Positions 3,110 through 43,828 of a stretch of 43,828 nucleotides of DNA are shown here, one piece after another. The notes below the pieces were generated by a model. The model searched no databases. It was not told where the DNA came from and saw only the letters and a list, made by a program, of their open reading frames with translations. Within the stretch, counting starts at the first letter, position 1, and every line of letters begins with the position of its first letter. Origin of the DNA: a virus; IMG/VR virus record IMGVR_UViG_3300031718_000141, positions 1 to 43,828 of that record; one strand, 5' to 3'. The position numbers and the translations under genes are program-made.

Positions 3110-3469
3110 CTATTTCTTTGTCCAGCGCGTTACCCTGCCATGTGCCGCTACGTGGCAACGGCGGCAGATGAACAGCGTCGATTCCGGTGAGTCATCCCCG
3201 CCTTGCGCCCGCGTTGGCGAATGGTGCAGCTCGCCGGTTTCTTCCGTGATGTTCCGCCCGCAGCGATGCCCGTTGAAGCCATGCACCGGAGCCTCGCAGA
3301 ACCCCCTGCTGCGCAGGAACACCGCGTGCCTCAGCGCCGCCATGTCCAAGCCGAAGAGAAACGTCTGTATCTCCCCGTCCTTCGAGCGCTTCTTGTAGGA
3401 GTTCTTGTCCAGAAACCCAGCCGCCAGCGTTGCAGCGTCATCTTTAAACATTGGCCTACGTCGCTTCAT
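3110..3469 (-). CDS. HNH endonuclease, 119 aa
   Basis: GELHHSPTRAQGGDDSPESTLFICRRCHVAAHG matches the HNH core (HH...GG...N-position...CxxCH..H). TAG stop. Confidence 0.75.
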   Translation of the reverse strand: MKRRRPMFKDDAATLAAGFLDKNSYKKRSKDGEIQTFLFGLDMAALRHAVFLRSRGFCEAPVHGFNGHRCGRNITEETGELHHSPTRAQGGDDSPESTLFICRRCHVAAHGRVTRWTKK

Positions 3470-5210: not shown

Positions 5211-5828
5211 TTAGACCAGCTTTCCGTCTGTCAGTTCAGCGAGAAACTCGCGTTGCAACGCGCCCATTTTGTCTTCTTGCTCGACAACCTTGCCAATCAT
5301 GGCGACTAGCCAAATGCGGTCGCCTTTCCACTTGTCAAGTCTGTAAGTGGCATGTAACGTTCCGGCACTACAGAGATTCAATGGGCCGGGAACGGTCTGG
5401 ACAAGACCAACATGGGCAGCGGTACCAGTTCCGCCATTCGCCGGTTTCCCGTCTTTGTCGGATTTCCAGTAGGCCAGCTTTGCGCCTTCGCGGAGCAGCT
5501 TTTTGGCTCTAGCTTTGCGTTCTTTCGGCAGCATGGCTAGGAAACAAACAGTAGCTTCCTTTAAGCCGTCGCCGTCGCCGTAGCCGTAGCCGGAGCCGTA
5601 GCCGTAGCCGGAGCCGGAGCCGTAGCCGTCGCCGTAGCCGTAGCCGTCGCCGTAGCCGTAGCCGTCGCCGTAGCCGTAGCCGGAGCCGGAGCCGTAGCCG
5701 GAGCCGTAGCCGTAGCCGTAGCCGGAGCCGGAGCCGTAGCCGTAGCCGTAGCCGGAGCCGTAGCCGTAGCCGTAGCCGGAGCCGGAGCCGTCGCCGTATG
5801 TCAGAGTGCCCAAGGGGACTTCTCCCAC
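5211..5828 (-). CDS. Gly-Tyr repeat protein, about 205 aa: N-terminal (X-Gly)39 array plus a C-terminal globular domain containing LCSAGTLHAT
   Basis: ORF track. Only non-ATG starts are available (GTG 5828, or TTG 5813 with a GGGAG SD). TAA stop. The repeat is in frame with a normal-looking C-terminal domain. Confidence 0.6.
   Translation of the reverse strand: MGEVPLGTLTYGDGSGSGYGYGYGSGYGYGYGSGSGYGYGYGSGYGSGSGYGYGDGYGYGDGYGYGDGYGSGSGYGYGSGYGYGDGDGLKEATVCFLAMLPKERKARAKKLLREGAKLAYWKSDKDGKPANGGTGTAAHVGLVQTVPGPLNLCSAGTLHATYRLDKWKGDRIWLVAMIGKVVEQEDKMGALQREFLAELTDGKLV
5565..5798 (-). repeat. Tandem 6-nt periodic repeat (GGC TAC / GGC TCC / GGC GAC units) encoding (X-Gly)39
   Basis: Plus strand reads gccgtagccgtagccggagcc... 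for about 234 nt. Confidence 0.95.
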
Positions 5829-6085
5829 TTCTCAGTAGCTTCTGCGGTGACTTCGGAAACAGAAGTTACATCCGTAAGGGTGAGCTTTGGAACCTTCGGG
5901 CCAATCTTGCATGAACTGGATGGGCCGTTCGCGGCAAGGCCAAGAAAGCCTTTCACGTCGGCAGACCAATACACACAATTGCGAGCATTGCTGATGGTGA
6001 TGGACTTGTCCTTTACGCCTACAGATGCGTAGCCGAAGAACACGCCTCGATGAACTGTTGTAACGAGCACTGCTTGTTCCTTCAT
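5801..6085 (-). CDS. conserved-looking phage hypothetical protein, 94 aa (MKEQAVLVTTVHRGVFFGYA...)
   Basis: ORF 5801..6184 trimmed to ATG 6085, which is preceded by AGGAGG. TGA stop. Confidence 0.7.
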   Translation of the reverse strand: MKEQAVLVTTVHRGVFFGYASVGVKDKSITISNARNCVYWSADVKGFLGLAANGPSSSCKIGPKVPKLTLTDVTSVSEVTAEATEKWEKSPWAL

Positions 6086-13576: not shown

Positions 13577-13830
13577 TGCTGACCGGCCAAGCGAAGTGGA
13601 AAGAAGTCATGCAAGGCCCCATCTCGCGCAATGAAGCGCAGATGATGGAAGACCGCATCTGCACGCATGTTCTTTCAACCGCCACGGCCATCGAAGCGCT
13701 CGATACGCTCCTGACCAAAAAAGGTATTCTCGCGGACAACGAACTCCTCAATGCGGTCGCCGAACTGCTCAAAACAAAATCTGAGCAGGTCAGTGCCGCA
13801 GCCGAATCCTCGAACATCGTAGGTGTCTAG
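13576..13830 (+). CDS. hypothetical protein, 84 aa
   Basis: ORF track. TGATG overlap. TAG stop. Confidence 0.6.
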   Translation: MLTGQAKWKEVMQGPISRNEAQMMEDRICTHVLSTATAIEALDTLLTKKGILADNELLNAVAELLKTKSEQVSAAAESSNIVGV

Positions 13831-14087
13831 TGGCAGTCAATATTCCAGCGGTTGCGGTAACCACCACCAAGCTGGCGGATGGCAACGTGCGCTTCGATTT
13901 CTACTCTTCGCTCGACGGCGTGAACGCCTATGCCGACTTGCGCTTCAGCGTGGTCATGTCGAGCGCAAACGTGACCAGCATCAATACCACCGTCAACGGC
14001 GGCTCGACCGGAGCAACGCTCACACAGGTCTACGCGCAGGACGCGAATCGCGGCGACTACGTGCCGGGCATGGCATTCGCAGCTTAG
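13830..14087 (+). CDS. hypothetical protein, 85 aa (GTG start)
   Basis: ORF track. TAGTG overlap. TAG stop within TAGGAG. Confidence 0.55.
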   Translation: MAVNIPAVAVTTTKLADGNVRFDFYSSLDGVNAYADLRFSVVMSSANVTSINTTVNGGSTGATLTQVYAQDANRGDYVPGMAFAA

Positions 14088-14095
14088 GAGAACTC

Positions 14096-14203
14096 ATGGG
14101 TGCAGGCGAACTGATGAAGCCCGTTACGGACGTGGCCAAGAAAGCCGCGACTGCGGGGAAGATTAAGAAAATTTCTTTGAAGATAAAAATGAAGGAGAAA
14201 TAG
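14096..14203 (+). CDS. small Lys-rich protein, 35 aa
   Basis: AGGAG lies 5 nt before ATG 14096. MGAGELMKPVTDVAKKAATAGKIKKISLKIKMKEK. TAG stop. Confidence 0.4.
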   Translation: MGAGELMKPVTDVAKKAATAGKIKKISLKIKMKEK

Positions 14204-14206
14204 CCG

Positions 14207-14602
14207 GTGACGAGAGACGAGCGGCTCGCATATGGCAAGTCGTACTATCGGAAAAATCGCACGGAAATGTTGGAGCGCGCCAAGTCTCGCTATGACCACG
14301 AGGAAAATCACGCCTATCAAATAAATCTGCGCTACGGCGTGACTAAGGAAGAATACGCCTCACTGCTAAAGGCGCAGGGCGAAGAATGTGCCATCTGTGA
14401 GAACAGGACCTCCAACAGGCGTACTAAGAAATTAAGCATAGACCACGACCATGAAACCAAGGAAACCAGAGGGCTGCTCTGCGCCAAGTGCAATTTGATT
14501 ATCGGCCTTTGTGGGGAAAACGCGGATATTCTAATCAATGCCGCTAATTACCTCGCCATCTGGAAAGAAGAGGGACGAATTATCAAAGAAGTGGCGGCAT
14601 GA
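14207..14602 (+). CDS. Endonuclease VII-type (T4 endoVII family) HNH nuclease, 131 aa
   Basis: CAICENRTSNRRTKKLSIDHDHETKETRGLLCAKCNLIIG matches the Endonuclease_7 signature. GTG start. Confidence 0.8.
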   Translation: MTRDERLAYGKSYYRKNRTEMLERAKSRYDHEENHAYQINLRYGVTKEEYASLLKAQGEECAICENRTSNRRTKKLSIDHDHETKETRGLLCAKCNLIIGLCGENADILINAANYLAIWKEEGRIIKEVAA

Positions 14603-34789: not shown

Positions 34790-35228
34790 ACTCTTGTTTC
34801 TCGCAGTAGTTTTATTGGCTTTGTGGCCGCAGAATCCCGGTACCACACATTCAAACGGGAGCGGCGCACCGGTAGGTTCGTGCATATCCGGCAGTTCCTA
34901 CGTAGACAGCGCGACCGGAAACCACTGGGCTTGCACCGGCTTAGCTTGGAAGCTTATGGCGTCAGGGGTGGCACTGAGTGGAACGACCGGTTCAATCGGC
35001 GGAGGATTGCTGACCGCTGGCGGGACTGCTTCAGGAACGGTCACTGTCACGGGGGCTACCGTAGGCATGGTTTGCACCGCACAGCCTAGCGATGGCACCA
35101 ACATCTACGCGTTAGGAGCAAATGTCGGTTGTACCGTAACGGCGACCAATACGGTTACGGTGAACGTGGTGGCCATAGTTGCTTTAACGCCTGTTGCAAA
35201 AACCTACGTAGTGAGGGTGATTCAATGA
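34779..35228 (+). CDS. secreted/anchored Gly-Thr-rich protein, 149 aa (GTG start)
   Basis: N-terminus MQIKLLFLAVVLLALWPQ. Confidence 0.55.
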   Translation: MQIKLLFLAVVLLALWPQNPGTTHSNGSGAPVGSCISGSSYVDSATGNHWACTGLAWKLMASGVALSGTTGSIGGGLLTAGGTASGTVTVTGATVGMVCTAQPSDGTNIYALGANVGCTVTATNTVTVNVVAIVALTPVAKTYVVRVIQ

Positions 35229-37246
35229 GACGACTATTTTTGTTTTTACTTTTGATTATGGCATGGCCGCATTCATCGCGCGCGCAAGGTGTCGTTATTG
35301 GAACATCCTGCCCAGCCGCAGGTCAGAACGCTATCTCGACGCAGGGCGTTCCTGTTGTTTGCACCGGCAGCCCGCTTGTCTGGACGAATCCCAATGGCTC
35401 CTCCTCCGGCTCCGGCAATGGGGTAGGGTCTGGAGCAGCGCCCATCATGGCTTACTATCTGTCGAACTCCTGCCCGATAGCGAACACCGGCTCCTGCTAT
35501 TTCACCTATGCCGATACGCTCATGGACAACACCTGTTCATGGACTTCTTCGACAGCTCAAGCGGTATGCTCGGACGGTCCTTTCAAATCGACGGACTGTG
35601 TAGGCGGAACCGGCTGCACCGGAACAGGAACAAGCAAGTCCCTGGCAGGATGGTCTAGTTGCCAAGCCGACCAAGTGGGCCTTCTCAGCACCTTCACCAA
35701 CGGCGCTATCAGCAACACCGCCAATGTAACCATCTCTTCATTTACAAGCTCTACGACGGTAGGACTATCCGCGACTCCGGCTAACGCGGTTGCTTCGGCG
35801 GGGTGTGTCTTCTTTGGGCACTTGGACGATACCGGAGCTGCTGCTTTCGATGCGGCTATCGCAGCCAGTACCCAATGCCCCAAGGGGATGCTAGCTGCCG
35901 CTTATTATCAGTACCAGAATCCCCATCACTACGCACAGCCAAACTCATGCTCCATCACTGAGCCGCTTGTCAACTTCGCCGGTCCCGGCTATGGCAATAC
36001 AACCCTTCCCGCCGGTCTCGAACTTGAAGGACGTGGCACCGGGCCTACCGTCGTCTTTCTAAACCCTTCTTTCCCGAATGGCGATGCCTGCACTAGAAAA
36101 GCCACCAGTTCCCAAACGACTGGCGGATGCTTCGCCATTCCCCTGCTTGGCAAGTGGGTTGACTTGCGTCTAAGCGGCGGCGGCAATTTCATCGCTTCAA
36201 ATATGTCGGGCAAGAACCTCATTACCATGGCCGTCGGCACGCTGATGAATTTCACCTGCACGAACTTCGGCGCAGGGCAGTCGAGCATGGCCGGAATCAA
36301 CATGGGGCAGTTCTCGCAACTGTATCAGGTGAACAATTCCGGTTGTGGCGGCTTGGGTATTGTTTCAGAAACAGGCTCTCTCAATAACGTCCTTTTCCGC
36401 ACGGTGGTGGAGAACTCCGGGACAAATGCGCTGCTTATCAATTCCGGCTCTCAGGTTTTCTGTTACTGGTGCGACTTCGCAGGACCAATCACTTCAACGG
36501 GCCTCGACATCATCAGCAACAACGGTGGCTCGCTTTCCGGTTTTGGAATGCAGGCGAAGATTGCCAACGCCACAAGCACTACGACTTCCGGCACAATTGT
36601 CTACCACGCTACGGCAACCGGAGCTAAGCTGTATGCCGACAACTCTTCTTTCATCGCCAATTACGGTTCAAATACAAACAATGGGGCGGTGTGGTGCGCC
36701 TTCACTCCATGTGTCGTATCGCTCGTCAATGGCAGTCAGTTGCTTGGCGGCTCAACCAGCTTTTCTTATGCCGATACGGCTGGCGGCACGCTCTACATCG
36801 ACCCCAGCACGCTGTTCAATCTACCGTTCTCGAACGGGAATATCAGTGGAACGATTGCGGCTGATGGTCACTCTTTCGGAGCGGGCTGTACTGGGACGGC
36901 GACAGCCTCTTCGACGCTCGGGCTTTACAACCCATTTGCCAATCCCACGACAACGGCTTCGGCTTGCTCCTCTACGACGATTGGCACAGGCTTTCCTATG
37001 CAGCGAGCGGCCACTATCTACGGGCTGCAATGCAAGTCCACCGCGACAACGGTTTCCGTAGCCTGCAAAATCGTTGTGAACGGAACACCGAACGCGACAG
37101 AAACTTGCACCATGACGGCGACGACGACTTGCAACGACTTTACGCATTCCATTTTAGTCAACAAGAACGACTTAATCACACCGGAGATAGTTACCGGCGC
37201 GGCGGAAACTGGCGCGAATATCACGCTCAGCTTTTTCTGGCAGTAG
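35225..37246 (+). CDS. Cys-rich beta-helix-like protein with a signal peptide, 673 aa
   Basis: ORF 35129..37246 trimmed to ATG 35225 (ATGA overlap). MRRLFLFLLLIMAWPHSSRAQG. TAG stop in TAGGAGAG. Confidence 0.65.
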   Translation: MRRLFLFLLLIMAWPHSSRAQGVVIGTSCPAAGQNAISTQGVPVVCTGSPLVWTNPNGSSSGSGNGVGSGAAPIMAYYLSNSCPIANTGSCYFTYADTLMDNTCSWTSSTAQAVCSDGPFKSTDCVGGTGCTGTGTSKSLAGWSSCQADQVGLLSTFTNGAISNTANVTISSFTSSTTVGLSATPANAVASAGCVFFGHLDDTGAAAFDAAIAASTQCPKGMLAAAYYQYQNPHHYAQPNSCSITEPLVNFAGPGYGNTTLPAGLELEGRGTGPTVVFLNPSFPNGDACTRKATSSQTTGGCFAIPLLGKWVDLRLSGGGNFIASNMSGKNLITMAVGTLMNFTCTNFGAGQSSMAGINMGQFSQLYQVNNSGCGGLGIVSETGSLNNVLFRTVVENSGTNALLINSGSQVFCYWCDFAGPITSTGLDIISNNGGSLSGFGMQAKIANATSTTTSGTIVYHATATGAKLYADNSSFIANYGSNTNNGAVWCAFTPCVVSLVNGSQLLGGSTSFSYADTAGGTLYIDPSTLFNLPFSNGNISGTIAADGHSFGAGCTGTATASSTLGLYNPFANPTTTASACSSTTIGTGFPMQRAATIYGLQCKSTATTVSVACKIVVNGTPNATETCTMTATTTCNDFTHSILVNKNDLITPEIVTGAAETGANITLSFFWQ

Positions 37247-37255
37247 GAGAGATGC

Positions 37256-37489
37256 ATGAAGAAAGCATTCGCAGCACTCGCTGTCTTGATTACGCTGGTA
37301 GGCTATAGCGCCTGGAATTGCCGCGTGCGCATCCCTTTGTCCAACATTTATGTGTGGACGATGTTCAAGCCCAAACCTCGGCTGTGGGGCAATGCTGTGG
37401 AGTTCGACCATCACGGCTGGCAGGAGATTTGCCTGGCTGAAAACGGCAAAGCAAAGTGCGTCCCGCTTGTAAAGGCGTCGCCGCAATGA
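37256..37489 (+). CDS. small secreted/membrane protein, 77 aa
   Basis: AGGAGA SD. N-terminus MKKAFAALAVLITLVGYSAWNC. Confidence 0.5.
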   Translation: MKKAFAALAVLITLVGYSAWNCRVRIPLSNIYVWTMFKPKPRLWGNAVEFDHHGWQEICLAENGKAKCVPLVKASPQ

Positions 37490-40146: not shown

Positions 40147-40362
40147 ATGGGCATCGGCCCGAGTCCGGGAACTACTTACAAGACACGTTGCACTGCAAAA
40201 TCGAGCCACACGGCGAGCTTCAACGGTGATATAAGCATCGCTATCTCTGGCACGAAAGAGCAGATTGAGTACTATGAGTTTGGCCGCACTTACATCTGGA
40301 ACGTTATGCCTGCTGACGGCGACAAGCCTGATGGCGGGGATACTCAAGCATCCACCAGCTAA
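40147..40362 (+). CDS. hypothetical protein, 71 aa
   Basis: GGGAGG SD 7 nt upstream of the ATG. Its 3' end overlaps the next ORF. Confidence 0.45.
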   Translation: MGIGPSPGTTYKTRCTAKSSHTASFNGDISIAISGTKEQIEYYEFGRTYIWNVMPADGDKPDGGDTQASTS

Positions 40363-40891
40363 TCTGGGCTGGTATCTCTGGGCGGAGCTTGTTTCTATCC
40401 CGTTCTTCCTGTGCTCGGCGTGGGCTTTCGGGGTCTACAGCGTGGCTTACGCGGTTGTCTATTGCCTGCTGACGGCGCTCATCTTCCTGACCATTGCCCG
40501 GCTGGCGTGGGATTGCCTTGAGTCACGAAGGTATCGTTTCAGGGCTTTAGGCGTGGCGCTGACTTTTTCCATCGTCCTGACCAGAATCGCGTTTATAGGC
40601 ATTTCCAAGCCCTTCTCCGGCTACTTGGTGATTTCACTGGTCGAGGGGCTTATTCTCGCGTGGGCGGGCATCCTAGCCGTGTTTACCGCCCCTTATACGC
40701 GACGGCCCGACCTGACTTTCCCACTAGGAGCTTTGTGGCTGGGGCAGGCGTGCTACCGGCTGGGATGGGCCTTGAACTTCAGCGTCTGGCAGGAGATTAA
40801 TTGGGTGATACCGCCGATGCTCGGACTCGCGTGTTATTCATTTCTAGCGTGGCGGCTGGGCCAAAGAGCCGCTGTCGAGCATCTAAGCTAG
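40274..40891 (+). CDS. polytopic membrane protein (about 6 TM), about 205 aa (start uncertain: 40265 TTG, 40274 ATG or 40331 ATG)
   Basis: ORF track. Last gene of the plus-strand block. TAG stop. Confidence 0.6.
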   Translation: MSLAALTSGTLCLLTATSLMAGILKHPPANLGWYLWAELVSIPFFLCSAWAFGVYSVAYAVVYCLLTALIFLTIARLAWDCLESRRYRFRALGVALTFSIVLTRIAFIGISKPFSGYLVISLVEGLILAWAGILAVFTAPYTRRPDLTFPLGALWLGQACYRLGWALNFSVWQEINWVIPPMLGLACYSFLAWRLGQRAAVEHLS

Positions 40892-40939
40892 AAAATTGGC
40901 GCGCCCGGTGGTACTTAAACCCGCACAGCGCTAGCAGCC

Positions 40940-40954
40940 GGGCGCATGGCGCCC
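40940..40954. terminator. GC hairpin GGGCGC-atg-GCGCCC between the convergent blocks; possible terminator (weak T tract)
   Basis: Perfect 6-bp stem read by eye. Lies between the two copies of ATTGGCGCGCC. Confidence 0.3.
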
Positions 40955-40963
40955 CGTTCTCAA

Positions 40964-41380
40964 TTAAGAGACTGATTGCTCAGCCGGGGCATTGGCGCGC
41001 CAAGAGGGAGTCGAACCCTCAACCTGCCCAGTTAGAGTGGGCCGCTCTGCCAGTTGAGCTACAGGCGCGTAAACTCGGTAATGCTTCAGTACTTCTCTCT
41101 GCTCGCCGCGAATCGGAGCCGTCGCAATCGCTGTAAATCCCAAGTCAAAATCAGGCTCCGTCCATTCGTAATGAGGGATGCCGTTGTCCCTCAGTTTCTT
41201 GGCGGTCTTGAGCAGTGAGCGCACGTTGGGCAAGCCAATCAGGACGATGTTCGGGCAGCCCGTCTCATGCCGAATCGAGACAAGCTGGTAGATGGCGTGA
41301 TTGGATTGGACGATTTGTTGCGCGAAAGTAATATCGGTGCGGACGAAAACGTAAACGTAGGAATCAGGAATCTATGACAT
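40964..41380 (-). CDS. PTH2-like (peptidyl-tRNA hydrolase 2 fold) protein. ATG-TCA-TAG opening with an in-frame amber at codon 3; the frame has no stop before the tRNA and only closes at TAA 40966-40964.
   Basis: Hand-translated. Domain codons 41371..41069 read IPDSYVYVFVRTDITFAQQIVQSNHA...PNIVLIGLPNVRSLLKTAKKLRDNGIP...FTAIATAP...VLKHYRVY. The ORF track sees only the TTG-started 3' part (40964..41233). Confidence 0.6.
40993..41068 (-). tRNA. tRNA with anticodon CUA (amber suppressor), 76 nt, CCA encoded
   Basis: Hand fold of GCGCCTG-TA-GCTC-AACTGGCA-GAGC-G-GCCCA-CTCTAAC-TGGGC-AGGTT-GAGGG-TTCGACT-CCCTC-TTGGCGC-G-CCA. All stems are Watson-Crick except U6.U67 and G7.U66. U8, A14, G18G19, A21, U33, A37 and the T-loop are conserved. 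The anticodon is at 41035-41033. Confidence 0.85.
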
Positions 41381-41386
41381 GTGCGC

Positions 41387-41415
41387 ATTCTAGAAAATCC
41401 CTCAAACACTGTCAA
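41387..41415 (-). promoter_or_regulatory. near-consensus sigma70-like promoter TTGACA - 17 nt - TAGAAT, then 6 nt to the ATG (leaderless)
   Basis: Minus strand: TTGACA 41415-41410, TAGAAT 41392-41387, ATG 41380-41378. Confidence 0.6.
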
Positions 41416-41425
41416 GCAAAATCCG

Positions 41426-41842
41426 CTAACCTTCCTCGACCGCTTGCTGCACGTTGTCGCCGTTATTGCTTGGCGGGTAGGTCTTGCCATGGCGCAACTG
41501 GAAGTGGAAGTGCTCGTTGTCCGTGCCCGCGTTCTCCAGCCAGCCGAAAAAGTAGTCCGTCACATAGCCGCCAGAGTTGACTATCGGCGTTCCAAAGTGA
41601 GCTAAAACCTTGTCCACGAAAACGGATTTAGTTACCTCGTCCATGTCATGCGAGCGCACGTCGTAGGCGCATCCGGCGTGGTGCGGGTCGAGGTTCCCGC
41701 TGTGCATCCCGTCCGTGCCCGAGGTGATTACTAGGTCGCGTCCCATCTCCTGTCCCGTCTCCCACAGAGCCGCCAGCAAAGCAAATCCTGAAGGAGCGAT
41801 GATTGAGAATTGCACACCCGGCGCTACCGTTATGACGTTCAT
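41426..41842 (-). CDS. endolysin, zinc peptidase M15 (VanY/L-Ala-D-Glu peptidase-like), 138 aa
   Basis: ITSGTDGMHSGNLDPHHAGCAYDV...EHFHFQL gives the H-x-D and H-x-H metal ligands. ATGA overlap with the holin. TAG stop. Confidence 0.65.
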   Translation of the reverse strand: MNVITVAPGVQFSIIAPSGFALLAALWETGQEMGRDLVITSGTDGMHSGNLDPHHAGCAYDVRSHDMDEVTKSVFVDKVLAHFGTPIVNSGGYVTDYFFGWLENAGTDNEHFHFQLRHGKTYPPSNNGDNVQQAVEEG

Positions 41843-42042
41843 ATACTCGCTTTCTTTTCAATCCGCCTGACGTACCAGCGTAGAGCGTCGTTCACCATGC
41901 ACAAGCCCGCGTGGACGCCCAGCAGCACTATGAGAATTGTAGCGCCCCATTTACAAACGGAGTCGTTCTCAGAGTGAAGCAGAAGGCAAAGCACGAGCGT
42001 GAATGTCCACCAAGGCACGTTTTTGTCATATCGGCTGTCCAT
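41839..42042 (-). CDS. holin (two TM helices, basic C-terminus), 67 aa
   Basis: WWTFTLVLCLLLH and GATILIVLLGVHAGLCMV, then RWYVRRIEKK. Sits immediately upstream of the endolysin. Confidence 0.6.
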   Translation of the reverse strand: MDSRYDKNVPWWTFTLVLCLLLHSENDSVCKWGATILIVLLGVHAGLCMVNDALRWYVRRIEKKASI

Positions 42043-42075
42043 TGTGGGTTCCTTTCGGAGGCGTGGGAACCGGGT

Positions 42076-42094
42076 AGCGCCAAGCTACAGGCGG
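42076..42094 (-). ncRNA. tRNA-derived minihelix-like sequence: positions 2-12 of the CUA tRNA fused to its 3' acceptor strand
   Basis: The minus strand reads CGCCTGTAGCT-TGGCGC. The tRNA has CGCCTGTAGCT at positions 2-12 and TTGGCGC at positions 66-72. Confidence 0.4.
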
Positions 42095-42179
42095 CTCCCA
42101 TGCCCGATTCGCGTTGCGTTTTTAGCTCAGACTTACACGCGCTTCCTTCTCTGCTGGCATCCGAACACCAGCAAGGCCG

Positions 42180-42617
42180 CTATGAAAGCTGGTTGATATT
42201 GCCGCCGGTGGCCGGTGTCGTCAGCAAGGGCACTGTGGCCGTCGCTGTGACTGCCGTGCCGTCCGAGGCTGTTCCTGCCACCGTCAAGGTGTAGCTCGTG
42301 AGCGTGTCCGCCACCGCATCCACCGCCGTCACCGTGTTCCCCGTGGGGTCCGATGCCAGAGGAGTCAGCGTCAGGCCGGGGTCACTCGAACTCCAGTTGA
42401 CCGCCGCGCCCGGTGTCATGCCGCCGTTCCACACCACCTGAAATACGCTCGTTCCGCCAATCTTCGTGCCGGTAATCGCCATCTGTTTTTCTCCTTGAAA
42501 GATTTTGCCGCCCGTTGCTGGCCTGCGAAGAAGAGAATGCGCCAAGGACACCAGTTCTTCAAGAGCATTTGCGATGCGTCCCAGGTCGAAATCGGCTAGT
42601 TTGTCCCATTCGCTCAT
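42180..42617 (-). CDS. Ig-like (Big_2-like) domain protein, 145 aa, with a strong internal start at 42482 (100-aa form)
   Basis: ORF track. AAGGAG lies 8 nt before the internal ATG. The Thr/Ala/Val-rich beta-sandwich-like C-terminal part is the Ig-like region. TAG stop. Confidence 0.6.
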   Translation of the reverse strand: MSEWDKLADFDLGRIANALEELVSLAHSLLRRPATGGKIFQGEKQMAITGTKIGGTSVFQVVWNGGMTPGAAVNWSSSDPGLTLTPLASDPTGNTVTAVDAVADTLTSYTLTVAGTASDGTAVTATATVPLLTTPATGGNINQLS

Positions 42618-42754
42618 GCTTTCCGCCTGTGCGTTACGCCGATGTAGAACAGCAAAATAGGCACACTGAACGGAGCCAGCAACTGCAAAAAGCCGTACAG
42701 GTACACAGCCAATGTCCCTGCCAGCCCCAGCCAGTCCTTGAGCGCGTGAAGCAT
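42614..42754 (-). CDS. small membrane protein, 46 aa (MLHALKDWLGLAGTLAVYLYGFLQLLAPFSVPILLFYIGVTHRRKA)
   Basis: Hand-translated. TAATG overlap upstream and ATGA overlap downstream. Confidence 0.4.
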   Translation of the reverse strand: MLHALKDWLGLAGTLAVYLYGFLQLLAPFSVPILLFYIGVTHRRKA

Positions 42755-42960
42755 TAGCTCTTAGGCGGATTCAGCGCGGCCATCATCGCCGTGTAAGCGG
42801 TATCGTTGCCCTGCGTCACAGTCTGAACCTGTGCAGCCAAGGCATCGTCAGTCAATCCGCTCTGCGAGCGCAAATTACCAATCCAGCCGAGCAGCGAATT
42901 TAGAAGCGTGAGTGCGAGGGTAATGTCTCCGGTTACGGGTCCTGCTGGTGTTGTTGCCAT
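42754..42960 (-). CDS. hypothetical protein, 68 aa
   Basis: ORF 42754..42963. ATG 42960 is in a TGATG overlap (or GTG 42963). Confidence 0.5.
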   Translation of the reverse strand: MATTPAGPVTGDITLALTLLNSLLGWIGNLRSQSGLTDDALAAQVQTVTQGNDTAYTAMMAALNPPKS

Positions 42961-43394
42961 CACTTTCCGCCTAGTCCCGTCAACAGGGCGCTGATTCCGG
43001 TGCTTACGCCTGTGACGATTGCTTGAATGTCGGCCTGCGCGTTAGGGTTGCTGACGTGAATGAGCGCTAGTTCCGTGGGGTTGGTGAGCGTGGCCTGAAA
43101 GGTCTGAGCGCACGCGGTATAGGCTCCGGCAGCGTTCCCGGCTGTATGGGCCGACTGAGCGCAAGAGGCAAAAGCCCCATTCCCGTCATTGGCAAATTTC
43201 AGCCAACCAAGAACGTTTGTCTCTTCCTGTACCGTGATGGTCCCATTTACCCGCAGAGCATCTACAGACTTCATGCCCGCCGCGATGCCGTTACCGATGT
43301 TGAGCGCGGCCTTCTCGCAAGCCCCGTAGTTGTCGGCGCACCCACCGAGCAGGAACGTCAGCACCGCAAAAATGGCCCATTTTCCTTTCTTCAT
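42960..43394 (-). CDS. lipoprotein, 144 aa
   Basis: MKKGKWAIFAVLTFLLGGC gives a signal peptide plus lipobox LGGC. GAGGTG SD. Confidence 0.65.
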   Translation of the reverse strand: MKKGKWAIFAVLTFLLGGCADNYGACEKAALNIGNGIAAGMKSVDALRVNGTITVQEETNVLGWLKFANDGNGAFASCAQSAHTAGNAAGAYTACAQTFQATLTNPTELALIHVSNPNAQADIQAIVTGVSTGISALLTGLGGK

Positions 43395-43441
43395 CAAGTC
43401 ACCTCACGTTGGATTTTACTCGTACTTTGGCCCTTGTCACG

Positions 43442-43531
43442 TTAATTCTTGAATATACCGCTCAGCCACCACCAGACAAACCCGCCTGCCAGCGCCAGCC
43501 CTGCCAGAAAGTATATGGCTCTGCGCCGCAT
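43442..43531 (-). CDS. very small membrane protein, 29 aa (MRRRAIYFLAGLALAGGFVWWWLSGIFKN)
   Basis: Hand-translated. AGGAGAGGG SD. Confidence 0.35.
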   Translation of the reverse strand: MRRRAIYFLAGLALAGGFVWWWLSGIFKN

Positions 43532-43559
43532 CGCCCTCTCCTATCGCTCCTCGGCCCCG

Positions 43560-43828
43560 CTACTGAACTTTCAGGTTCAACGTCCAATCTATTGCGCTCT
43601 TGGCCTCGGCAATCCATTTTTCCGCGTCTGCTCGCGTAGGACCGCCGTGGGATACGTGCGCGAAGGCCGACTCGACTAGGGCCAATCCGCTTTCCAATGC
43701 CTTGCGCTGGGTCTCAAACCTCACCCGTAGTTCCAGCACATCTTGGAAGGCCGGACTCCATCCCCAATCGCCCTTCTTTGGCGGGTCCTTGGCCCATCCG
43801 GTCGCAGCCGTCATGCATCCAGCCAACT
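43560..43828 (-). CDS. 3' part of the wrap-around hypothetical gene (see 1..164)
   Basis: ORF track 43560..43826. The true ATG lies at position 164 of the circle. TAG stop. Confidence 0.6.
   Translation of the reverse strand, partial: LAGCMTAATGWAKDPPKKGDWGWSPAFQDVLELRVRFETQRKALESGLALVESAFAHVSHGGPTRADAEKWIAEAKSAIDWTLNLKVQ
43702..43828. repeat. Terminal direct repeat, copy B (identical to 1..127).
   Basis: Exact 127-nt match to the start of the window. Confidence 0.95.

Follow-up and report, generated by a model that had tools for sequence, protein, structure and literature searches.

In a viral DNA stretch of 43,828 nucleotides (IMG/VR record IMGVR_UViG_3300031718_000141, hereafter the window), the minus strand carries a compact cassette in which a gene for a protein with a predicted peptidyl-tRNA hydrolase 2 (PTH2) fold opens with ATG, one sense codon and an in-frame TAG, and continues without a further stop codon into a tRNA gene with the anticodon CUA. 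We consider amber gating of the PTH2-fold gene by the co-encoded tRNA(CUA) the probable explanation of this arrangement and, judging from the sequences of the window and its relatives, assign it a probability of roughly two in three. Three observations favor it over simple re-initiation of translation, namely that the early stop is exclusively TAG, that this TAG covaries with the CUA tRNA, and that in isolated phages the TAG is followed by codons that do not function as starts. The cassette is a real and conserved system that apparently has no earlier description.

Anatomy of the cassette in the window

The promoter of the cassette (Table 1) matches the consensus at 11 of 12 positions and is the sole site returned by a consensus scan of 40200-42200. 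Six nucleotides (GCGCAC) separate the end of its TAGAAT box (41387) from the A of the ATG (41380), which is located where a promoter-driven transcript would begin and is followed by one sense codon and then by TAG. This is the arrangement taken to mark a leaderless gene, with a -10 box that ends 6-8 nt before the start codon and without a Shine-Dalgarno (SD) sequence. The first in-frame ATG, GTG or TTG past the TAG is a TTG at 41233-41231 (codon 47), and a protein initiated there would lack the first strand and first helix of the modelled structure as well as most of its second strand. The tRNA abuts the last conserved codon of the open reading frame (ORF), a TAC at 41071-41069, and starts at the next base. 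The first stop codon after the TAG is a TAA that lies 27 nt beyond the tRNA, and the last 34 sense codons of the read-through ORF consist of tRNA, spacer and minihelix sequence, the minihelices being anticodon-less tRNA-like elements that are described below.

Direct reading of the minus strand reproduced all coordinates that the initial annotation had given for the promoter, the ATG-TCA-TAG opening and the open frame; its translation of 101 amino acids was right, and ARAGORN placed a tRNA with the anticodon CTA directly after the TAC, as had been proposed. The absence of a start codon shortly after the TAG also held, but the start-free stretch comprises 46 codons and not 47.

Table 1 Features of the cassette in the window, examples of minihelices at other loci, and openings of the homologs in isolated phages (positions refer to the window unless a locus is named)
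Feature	Position	Strand	Details and basis
Sigma-70-type promoter	41387..41415	-	TTGACA 41415-41410, 17-nt spacer, TAGAAT 41392-41387
Opening	41372..41380	-	ATG 41380-41378, TCA 41377-41375, TAG 41374-41372; sequence reading
Domain with predicted PTH2 fold	41069..41371	-	101 codons (IPDSYVYVFVRTD...HYRVY); AlphaFold2 and Foldseek
Full read-through ORF	40964..41380	-	ATG to first non-TAG stop (TAA 40966-40964)
tRNA	40993..41068	-	Anticodon CUA (41035-41033), encoded CCA end; ARAGORN, Rfam
First minihelix	40947..40990	-	6-bp acceptor-like stem, GCAA-capped hairpin, 3-bp hairpin (loop UUAAUU), G-CCA
Second minihelix, partly degraded	40897-40945 within 40890..40945	-	Acceptor-like stem GCGCCCGG/CCGGGCGC, G-CCA, then AUUUUCU
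Minihelix examples, locus L031	1881-1931, 1937-1989		
Minihelix example, locus L002	~3380-3432		
Yersinia fHe-Yen9-04			Opening ATG TCT CAC TAG ATT
Pectobacterium CBB			Opening ATG GCA CAA TAG AAT
Serratia BF			Opening ATG ACG CAC TAG AAT
Salmonella Arash			Opening ATG CTG TAG AAC
Erwinia Kaldavass, Xanthomonas XbC2			Opening ATG GCT CAC TAG AAT
Ralstonia RsoM2USA			Opening ATG TTG TAG ATT
Acinetobacter ME3			Opening ATG ACT TAG ATT

Conservation of the opening in environmental relatives

Relatives were sampled from 24 IMG/VR loci, 53 metagenome loci of the Joint Genome Institute (JGI) and several further loci obtained by exact protein look-up, and de-duplication gave a set of 50 non-identical cassettes with the opening (individual loci carry the prefix L). 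The opening is ATG, one sense codon and TAG in 46 of the 50 and ATG, two to four sense codons and TAG in the other four. With the eight isolated phages included, all 58 gated homologs have their TAG somewhere from codon 3 to codon 6, which gives mini-ORFs of 2-5 codons, and the early stop is TAG in 50/50 environmental cassettes and 8/8 isolates and never TAA or TGA. Since the opening recurs in all of these sequences, the arrangement is not a product of chance; comparison of the TAG and its prefix thus bears out, across this set, the opening first noted in the window.

The second codon of the 46 shortest openings differs mostly at its third position (ACA 25, ACC 8, ACG 7, ACT 1, TCA 2, CCT 2, CAT 1). 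The codon after the TAG is ATT in 27 of the 50 cassettes, ATC in 12, ATG in six, ATA in three, and GTA and GTG in one each; the GTA, found in L017/L068, cannot serve as a restart codon. The +4 base after the TAG is a purine in 58/58 and an A in 56, a context that reportedly favored amber suppression in the E. coli work of Bossi in 1983 and of Miller and Albertini in 1983. Some database proteins that begin 'MTQ...' seemed to have a glutamine in place of the TAG, but the underlying DNA reads ATG ACG TAG and the Q stems from gene calling with genetic code 15.

The signals upstream converge on the same ATG. A TTGACA-like -35 box lies 34-38 nt before the ATG in 31/50 cassettes and 39-40 nt before it in ~8 more, so that the -35/-10 arrangement puts the transcript start at the ATG in ~39/50, while ~8-9/50 have instead a GGAG-type SD sequence 5-8 nt before this ATG. 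As promoters and SD sequences are both aimed at it, two initiation mechanisms would converge on the ATG that precedes the TAG. The leaderless start proposed in the initial annotation therefore agrees with the spacing in the window and in ~39/50 relatives, but not with the SD sequences before the same ATG in the ~8-9 other cassettes and in isolates. Likewise, the ORF enters or passes the first tRNA without a stop codon in the window and in ~30/40 cassettes, and homolog tails translate tRNA sequence ('APVAQ...GS.P..'), but a stop comes first in ~10 (e.g., L016, L053, L072) and in the jumbo-phage versions. The leaderless start and the missing stop codon are true for the window and are not universal, and they are not defining features of the system. 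Relatives that lack the TAG also run through their tRNA, which makes the ORF-into-tRNA arrangement independent of the amber gate; on the sampled sequences, it is a trait of the compact environmental cassettes.

The predicted suppressor tRNA and its covariation with TAG

ARAGORN predicts a single tRNA in the whole 43.8-kb window, which is the one in the cassette, and the Rfam tRNA model matches it over its full length with 60.8 bits against a gathering score of 29. The anticodon loop, CUCUAAC, has CUA within 7 nt, U33 and a purine at position 37, and by anticodon and cloverleaf the adjacent tRNA is, as proposed, a predicted amber suppressor. In comparison with L031, the closest relative, the anticodon stem has changed from GCCCA/UGGGC to CCUGA/UCAGG and the T stem from GAGGG/CCCUC to GUGGG/CCCAC; because both changes are compensatory, the tRNA of the window is a maintained one. 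Similarity to the tRNAs of related phage arrays gave no clear nearest isotype.

ARAGORN places a tRNA(CUA) in the 0-300 nt that follow the ORF in at least 39 of the 47 gated cassettes with enough flanking sequence, and a direct search found CUA anticodon stem-loops in six of the remaining ones. Relatives without the TAG have ordinary starts and other tRNAs: an SD sequence and a GTG start coupled to the upstream gene, with a tRNA-Arg(UCU), in L022/L081; an ATG that abuts the upstream stop, with a tRNA-Lys(UUU), in L089; and an SD sequence and a TTG start between the terminase genes, with a tRNA-Arg(UCU), in L090. These relatives form three independent TAG-less lineages, and on a conservative count the association between TAG and CUA has a Fisher exact p of 0.008; covariation of the TAG with a CUA tRNA is thus supported at the sequence level. 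The PTH2-like ORF of L090 (ENA contig k141_1189303), in which the tRNA(UCU) is embedded, has the small terminase gene on one side and the large terminase gene on the other. Opal (TCA) suppressors, guessed for some relatives from 'SK/SN' tails, were rejected, as ARAGORN reports a CTA anticodon that had been read in another phase.

Homologs in isolated phages

A tblastn search of GenBank phages returned homologs in 35 records at 29-41% identity, mostly in jumbo phages. Several records have nothing annotated under the match or a truncated ORF only; because of the in-frame TAG, the annotation of many isolated jumbo phages (e.g., LT960551, KY630187, MG752970, MW879342) misses the gene or cuts it short. 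Most of the isolates have a GAGGA/GGAG-type sequence before the ATG; ME3 has no clear one. The codon after the TAG is AAT or AAC in CBB, BF, Kaldavass, XbC2 and Arash, which makes a restart at this position impossible, and no in-frame canonical start follows the TAG of the isolates for tens of codons. The gene has a normal stop codon in the isolates and is not fused to a tRNA. In Arash, a CUA tRNA lies ~1 kb downstream, and in ME3 one annotated as 'anticodon CTA' lies ~450 nt upstream. One suppressor tRNA, for which no specific target was named, has been described for RsoM2USA (PMC8504454), and the Erwinia Eneladusvirus phages list a 'tRNA-Pyl' (PMC7760394). More distant homologs are ungated, with a plain ATG start in RaK2 and with the domain fused to a longer ORF in XacN1, Xoo-sp13 and RAS14.

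A distinct protein family with a predicted PTH2 fold

An AlphaFold2 model built on 37 homologs reached a predicted local distance difference test (pLDDT) score of 93.6 and a predicted template modelling (pTM) score of 0.86. The best 14 Foldseek matches in the PDB were all members of the PTH2 family (probability 1.0, TM 0.67-0.79), including MJ0051 (2zv3), Bit1 (1q7s), AF2095 (3erj), S. solfataricus Pth2 (1xty), PH1539, TA0108 and Atu0240, and the next match had E = 0.12. At the sequence level, PTH2 (PF01981) was the sole Pfam match and stayed below threshold (14.9 bits, E = 0.031, against a cut-off of 23 bits), as it did in 12 of the 37 family members (best E = 0.0058). The PTH2 identity put forward in the initial annotation thus finds support in the modelled fold and not in the Pfam score. 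The fold is PTH2 as judged from the model and the sequence family is distinct, with its own invariant residues (VQSNHA, PNIV, H..W.EPD, T). The protein matches two PHROG families, 34073 and 1866, both of unknown function, and NCBIfam contained no match for it or for its two neighbors. Because of the fold, and of the fold alone, the enzyme most likely hydrolyzes the 3'-terminal ester linkage of a tRNA or a tRNA-like RNA, i.e., of a peptidyl- or aminoacyl-tRNA, and would in this way deal with the effects of suppression or of damage to tRNAs.

The window ORF and its counterpart in L031 differ with a ratio of non-synonymous to synonymous substitution (dN/dS) of ~0.22, which indicates an ORF under purifying selection. 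Counted as representatives of 50% clusters, the family has 1930 members at E<=1e-3. At E<=1e-10 there are 905, many of which begin at an internal start codon and are thereby truncated, as would be expected from gene callers that take the TAG for a stop. A search of 185,579 species gave one match, on a 3.3-kb contig from a metagenome-assembled genome (MAG) of Gemmatimonadetes, so that by this count the family is essentially absent from cellular genomes.

Genetic code of the window

A greedy gene set called with code 11 covers 93% of the window, and reading TAG as sense covers 91%. In the greedy set, 16 of 71 ORFs end in TAG, and a curated set has 12 such ORFs among 61, the large terminase included. 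The use of the standard code in the window argues for amber gating of a single gene and not for recoding of the genome. No other window gene showed a need for UAG decoding when code-11 density and same-frame ORF pairs were inspected, as had been claimed initially. Two candidates were discarded: in the pair 13823-14203 and 14207-14602, the second ORF encodes an endonuclease VII with its own GGAG sequence and GTG start, and around 35129-37246 the flanking pieces (34823-35089 and 37256-37489) are junk frames or have their own SD sequence. Separately, 23 TAG triplets occur at intervals of 2-6 codons in one frame of the plus strand at 5347-5850, which suggests a TAG-rich short tandem repeat on that strand.

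Proposed mechanism and alternative explanations

In the explanation that we favor, a strong promoter would yield one transcript that carries the PTH2-fold gene with UAG as its third codon, the tRNA(CUA) and one or two minihelices. Ribosomes would initiate at the 5'-proximal AUG, leaderless in the window, and reach the UAG after one sense codon. With release factor 1 (RF1) alone, translation would terminate after a dipeptide; once the tRNA(CUA) had been processed, charged and accumulated and could outcompete RF1, read-through would occur and the enzyme would be made. Enzyme synthesis would in this way be gated by, and proportional to, amber-suppressor activity. Because tRNA and mRNA would come from one promoter, the circuit would be a coherent feed-forward AND gate that provides a delay and suppresses leakage, and since the gate sits at the very start of the gene, a failure would cost a dipeptide only. 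Should the enzyme act on the suppressor or its products, a feedback loop would exist as well. Phage PTH2 has been suggested by Iyer et al. to clear peptidyl-tRNA from jammed ribosomes (PMC7824862), and this suggestion, together with the ungated pairing with tRNA-Lys(UUU) or tRNA-Arg(UCU), would fit a role in tRNA recycling.

The self-referential reading of the initial annotation has good support as a matter of genetic logic. Decoding of the UAG by this tRNA, the residue inserted, the substrate of the enzyme, the sign of the loop and the role of translating into the tRNA are aspects that we infer.

Several points weigh against amber gating of a PTH2-type enzyme. Efficient suppression would extend the 12-16 genes of the window that end in TAG, yet these show no clear enrichment of back-up stops; the median distance to the next in-frame stop is 11 codons after TAG, a value from too few genes (n = 12) to be informative, compared with 17.5 codons after TGA and 64 codons after TAA. 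XacN1 has two CUA tRNAs, whose targets its authors could not identify (PMC5852040), and yet its fused homolog is ungated. Excision of the tRNA by RNase P would leave the upstream mRNA without a stop codon, which is seemingly counter-productive. The codon after the TAG is ATN or GTN in 50/50 environmental cassettes, a pattern that fits re-initiation equally well, and in seven of the 50 it is ATG or GTG, where the gate could be leaky or bypassed. Read-through, the transcription start site and charging of the tRNA are themselves proposals from sequence. As for the enzyme, a profile search of PDB sequences gave no PTH2 match, recognizable PTH2 sequence motifs were not found and the Pfam score lies below its cut-off. 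An hhalign comparison with an unverified MJ0051 sequence, a lead and no more, gave a probability of <1%; the secondary-structure elements appeared in the same order, and the GKGK and DAGxTQ motifs were unmatched. A GKGK loop and D-A-G-x-T-Q are the conserved catalytic motifs of PTH2.

A bolder interpretation, which we regard as unlikely, treats the cassette as a homeostat for nonsense suppression, in which the enzyme, made solely when its own UAG is read through, would specifically target the ester bond carried by the suppressor tRNA encoded alongside it or by the minihelices. By deacylating them or freeing peptides from them, it would set the level of amber suppression, as a tRNA-based analog of the autoregulation of release factor 2 (RF2). 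Translation into the tRNA, with the stop codon beyond it, would couple ribosome traffic to tRNA maturation, and the minihelices, as a novel kind of small RNA with a CCA end, would serve as substrates, decoys or cofactors.

Re-initiation behind a mini-ORF is rather improbable as well. It would have ATG-NNN-TAG load a 70S ribosome onto a leaderless or SD-led mRNA, RF1 terminate translation and the ribosome restart at the adjacent codon, with the tRNA(CUA) as a mere neighbor. The codon after the TAG is indeed start-like in 49/50 cassettes and ATG in six of them, but most of these codons are AUU, AUC or AUA, which are very weak bacterial start codons, and the AAT/AAC codons of CBB, BF, Kaldavass, XbC2 and Arash and the GTA of L017/L068 do not fit at all. 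A mini-ORF of this kind should also tolerate TAA or TGA, whereas TAG is used in 58/58, and the TAG occurs alongside a CUA tRNA and is missing next to a UCU or UUU tRNA.

Very unlikely, in our estimate, is a minigene that acts by drop-off, in which AUG-ACA-UAG would release fMet-Thr-tRNA and sequester a host tRNA, the read-through enzyme would relieve or tune this effect and the tRNA(CUA) would set the ratio. The anatomy in 46/50 cassettes, AUG plus one sense codon plus stop behind a strong initiation signal, is that of the bar type, the downstream product has a predicted peptidyl-tRNA hydrolase fold, and in relatives without the TAG the enzyme gene is accompanied by tRNA-Lys(UUU) or tRNA-Arg(UCU). 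Work on E. coli pth has found these two tRNAs prone to limiting drop-off. However, bar uses UAA or UGA while the stop here is strictly UAG, the second codon is variable (ACN, TCA, CCT, CAT, and versions of 3-5 codons), and nothing in the sequences points to toxicity or drop-off. Such a minigene is compatible with amber gating and not exclusive of it.

Least probable of all is an early stage of whole-genome TAG recoding toward code 15 with this TAG as the first recoded sense codon, for although recoded phages carry suppressor tRNAs, close standard-code relatives can gain one first (bioRxiv 10.1101/2021.08.26.457843) and some gene callers already use code 15 for these genes, code 11 fully explains the window, with its 93% density and 12-16 genes that end in TAG, and the same early TAG site is found in phages as far apart (30-40% identity) as those from soil and the jumbo phages of enterobacteria, which argues for long-term maintenance of one site in distant lineages and not for a drift to recoding.

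Relation to known systems

The literature covers phage suppressor tRNAs, code-change modules, theta ribozymes beside phage tRNAs and jumbo-phage PTH2. A full-text search, incomplete in coverage, returned no amber-gated PTH2-like gene, ORF-suppressor tRNA fusion or minihelices, and the earlier statement that no phage module with this arrangement has been described agrees with this search within its coverage. In the code-change modules of Borges et al., a suppressor tRNA lets genes with in-frame stops be translated, stands beside lysis genes and has been proposed to act as a timer (bioRxiv 10.1101/2021.08.26.457843). The cassette resembles them in that a phage-encoded suppressor tRNA would enable translation through an in-frame stop. 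However, the phages with code-change modules recode dozens of late genes and keep the module in the standard code, whereas here one gated gene lies inside the module; the genome uses the standard code, target and tRNA share a transcript, the product resembles a hydrolase of tRNA esters, and neither a release factor nor an aminoacyl-tRNA synthetase is present.

The conserved early in-frame stop (TAG at codon 3-6 in 58/58) is reminiscent of prfB, the RF2 gene, where decoding of a stop codon likewise controls the synthesis of a translation factor; prfB relies on a +1 frameshift at a UGA on which RF2 itself acts, while the cassette would rely on read-through by a dedicated tRNA. Synthetic amber gates and feed-forward loops follow the same logic, with less leak and an added delay. 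Anderson et al. reportedly built such an amber-suppressor AND gate in 2007, whose output needs both an amber mRNA and a suppressor tRNA. Synthetic gates are engineered with tRNA and target on separate promoters, whereas the present one would be natural and co-transcribed, with the ORF fused to the tRNA.

The predicted alpha/beta fold is shared with jumbo-phage PTH2 (PMC7824862) and with archaeal and eukaryotic PTH2 (2zv3, 1q7s, 1xty, 3erj), and jumbo-phage PTH2 also occurs in genomes with tRNA clusters and has a proposed function in peptidyl-tRNA clearing. Unlike known PTH2, the family lies below the Pfam and PDB sequence thresholds and has its own invariant residues, and an amber gate and a tRNA fusion are unreported for PTH2 in the literature searched. 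The bar minigenes of phage lambda (AUG AUA UAA/UGA) have in common with the opening a two-codon ORF, a strong initiation signal and a link to peptidyl-tRNA hydrolase, but they stand alone, end in UAA or UGA and have a toxicity confined to pth-defective hosts, whereas the opening ends in UAG and lies in frame with the enzyme gene.

With amber gating of this gene, the 'orphan' amber-suppressor tRNAs found in standard-code phages would have a conserved, concrete target, and hand-built amber-gated AND and feed-forward logic would have a natural counterpart in which gate, tRNA and target are on one RNA. About 1900 sequence clusters are systematically mis-annotated, as truncated, unannotated or code-15 genes, in a manner that pipelines could correct. 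The cassette also links a PTH2-fold enzyme, specific tRNAs (CUA, or UCU/UUU where ungated) and a new tRNA-like RNA, which hints at an unexplored part of phage tRNA biology. Direct tests are possible in cultured phages of Yersinia, Pectobacterium, Serratia, Erwinia, Salmonella, Acinetobacter and Ralstonia.

Anticodon-less tRNA-like minihelices

The cassette extends past the tRNA, which in the window is directly followed by two short elements ending in G-CCA. The first folds with a minimum free energy of -20 kcal/mol (z = -3.3) and is nearly identical in L031, where hairpin 1 is longer and has a GAAA cap. The TAA of the read-through ORF lies in the loop UUAAUU of its second hairpin. The second element aligns with copies in L018/L032/L001 and lacks the 5' strand of hairpin 1; its acceptor stem covaries with that of L031 (GGGGCUA/UAGCCCC) and its U-tract is conserved, while its fold is no better than that of shuffles (z = -0.45). 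It is possibly also the terminator of the cassette.

Copies were collected with a structural filter that asks for an acceptor stem of 6-8 bp, a hairpin that usually has a GNRA cap, a hairpin of 3-4 bp with a 6-nt UUNANU loop, and a discriminator base followed by CCA, in a total of 44-57 nt. This architecture lies beside the tRNA in at least 38 of the 50 cassettes, and shuffled sequence gave ~4 matches per 88 kb, or ~0.03 per locus, with much weaker folds. In 15 gap-free copies, 99% of cells pair and double changes occur in 10 of 10 tested pairs, where acceptor pairing had been a selection criterion and the register of hairpin 2 had not. One copy precedes the tRNA-Lys of the TAG-less L089. A conserved peptide between ORF and tRNA at some loci ('G.AQAAC..T.D.GA') turned out to be translated minihelix RNA. 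The ORF stop falls in the loop of hairpin 2 in roughly half of the read-through cases, a share estimated by eye without a systematic count and not clearly more than the one in three expected from the choice of frame, and we do not count it among the features of the system.

In their acceptor-like stem, T-arm-like hairpin, discriminator and CCA and in their lack of an anticodon arm, the minihelices resemble the 'top-half' mimics of tRNA and the tRNA-like domain of transfer-messenger RNA (tmRNA), but they have a GNRA-capped hairpin in place of the D and anticodon domain and lack G3:U70, an mRNA-like part and an SmpB context. No Rfam family matches them, and between ORF and tRNA or after the tRNA, Rfam detected no ribozyme or known RNA other than tRNA and one weak YrlA-like (Y RNA-like) match. 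The latter scores 41.6 bits against a gathering score of 69 at L001 3717-3823, a few hundred bases downstream of the cassette on a 102-kb viral contig.

Neighboring genes and further tRNAs

The cassette is located directly downstream of a minus-strand block of small ORFs (41426-43826). This block includes a 67-aa ORF (41839-42042) that looks membrane-spanning and a 145-aa ORF (42960-43397) with a lipoprotein-like N-terminus, which, judged by eye alone, would suggest a lysis cassette. The adjacent 138-aa ORF (41426-41842) ends in a TAG 10 nt before the -35 box and had no match in PHROG or NCBIfam.

Second tRNAs of 96-104 nt follow the first suppressor in L008 (3505-3602), L011 (3536-3635), L001 (3446-3541), L006 (3440-3542) and L009 (3863-3966). 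Their anticodon loop contains CUA, and their variable arm is very long and itself forms a CUA-containing hairpin; they are mis-called by ARAGORN (taaa, aac), and may be class-II-like amber suppressors. Among the first tRNA(CUA) genes after the ORF, those in L012, L016, L018, L020, L021 and L024 being examples, many deviate from the canonical form in their T loops (e.g., GUAUAAG, GUGGGAG, CUCAAUA) and have D loops without GG, while the tRNA of the window is canonical. The second tRNAs at these six loci are canonical, often with the discriminator U73.

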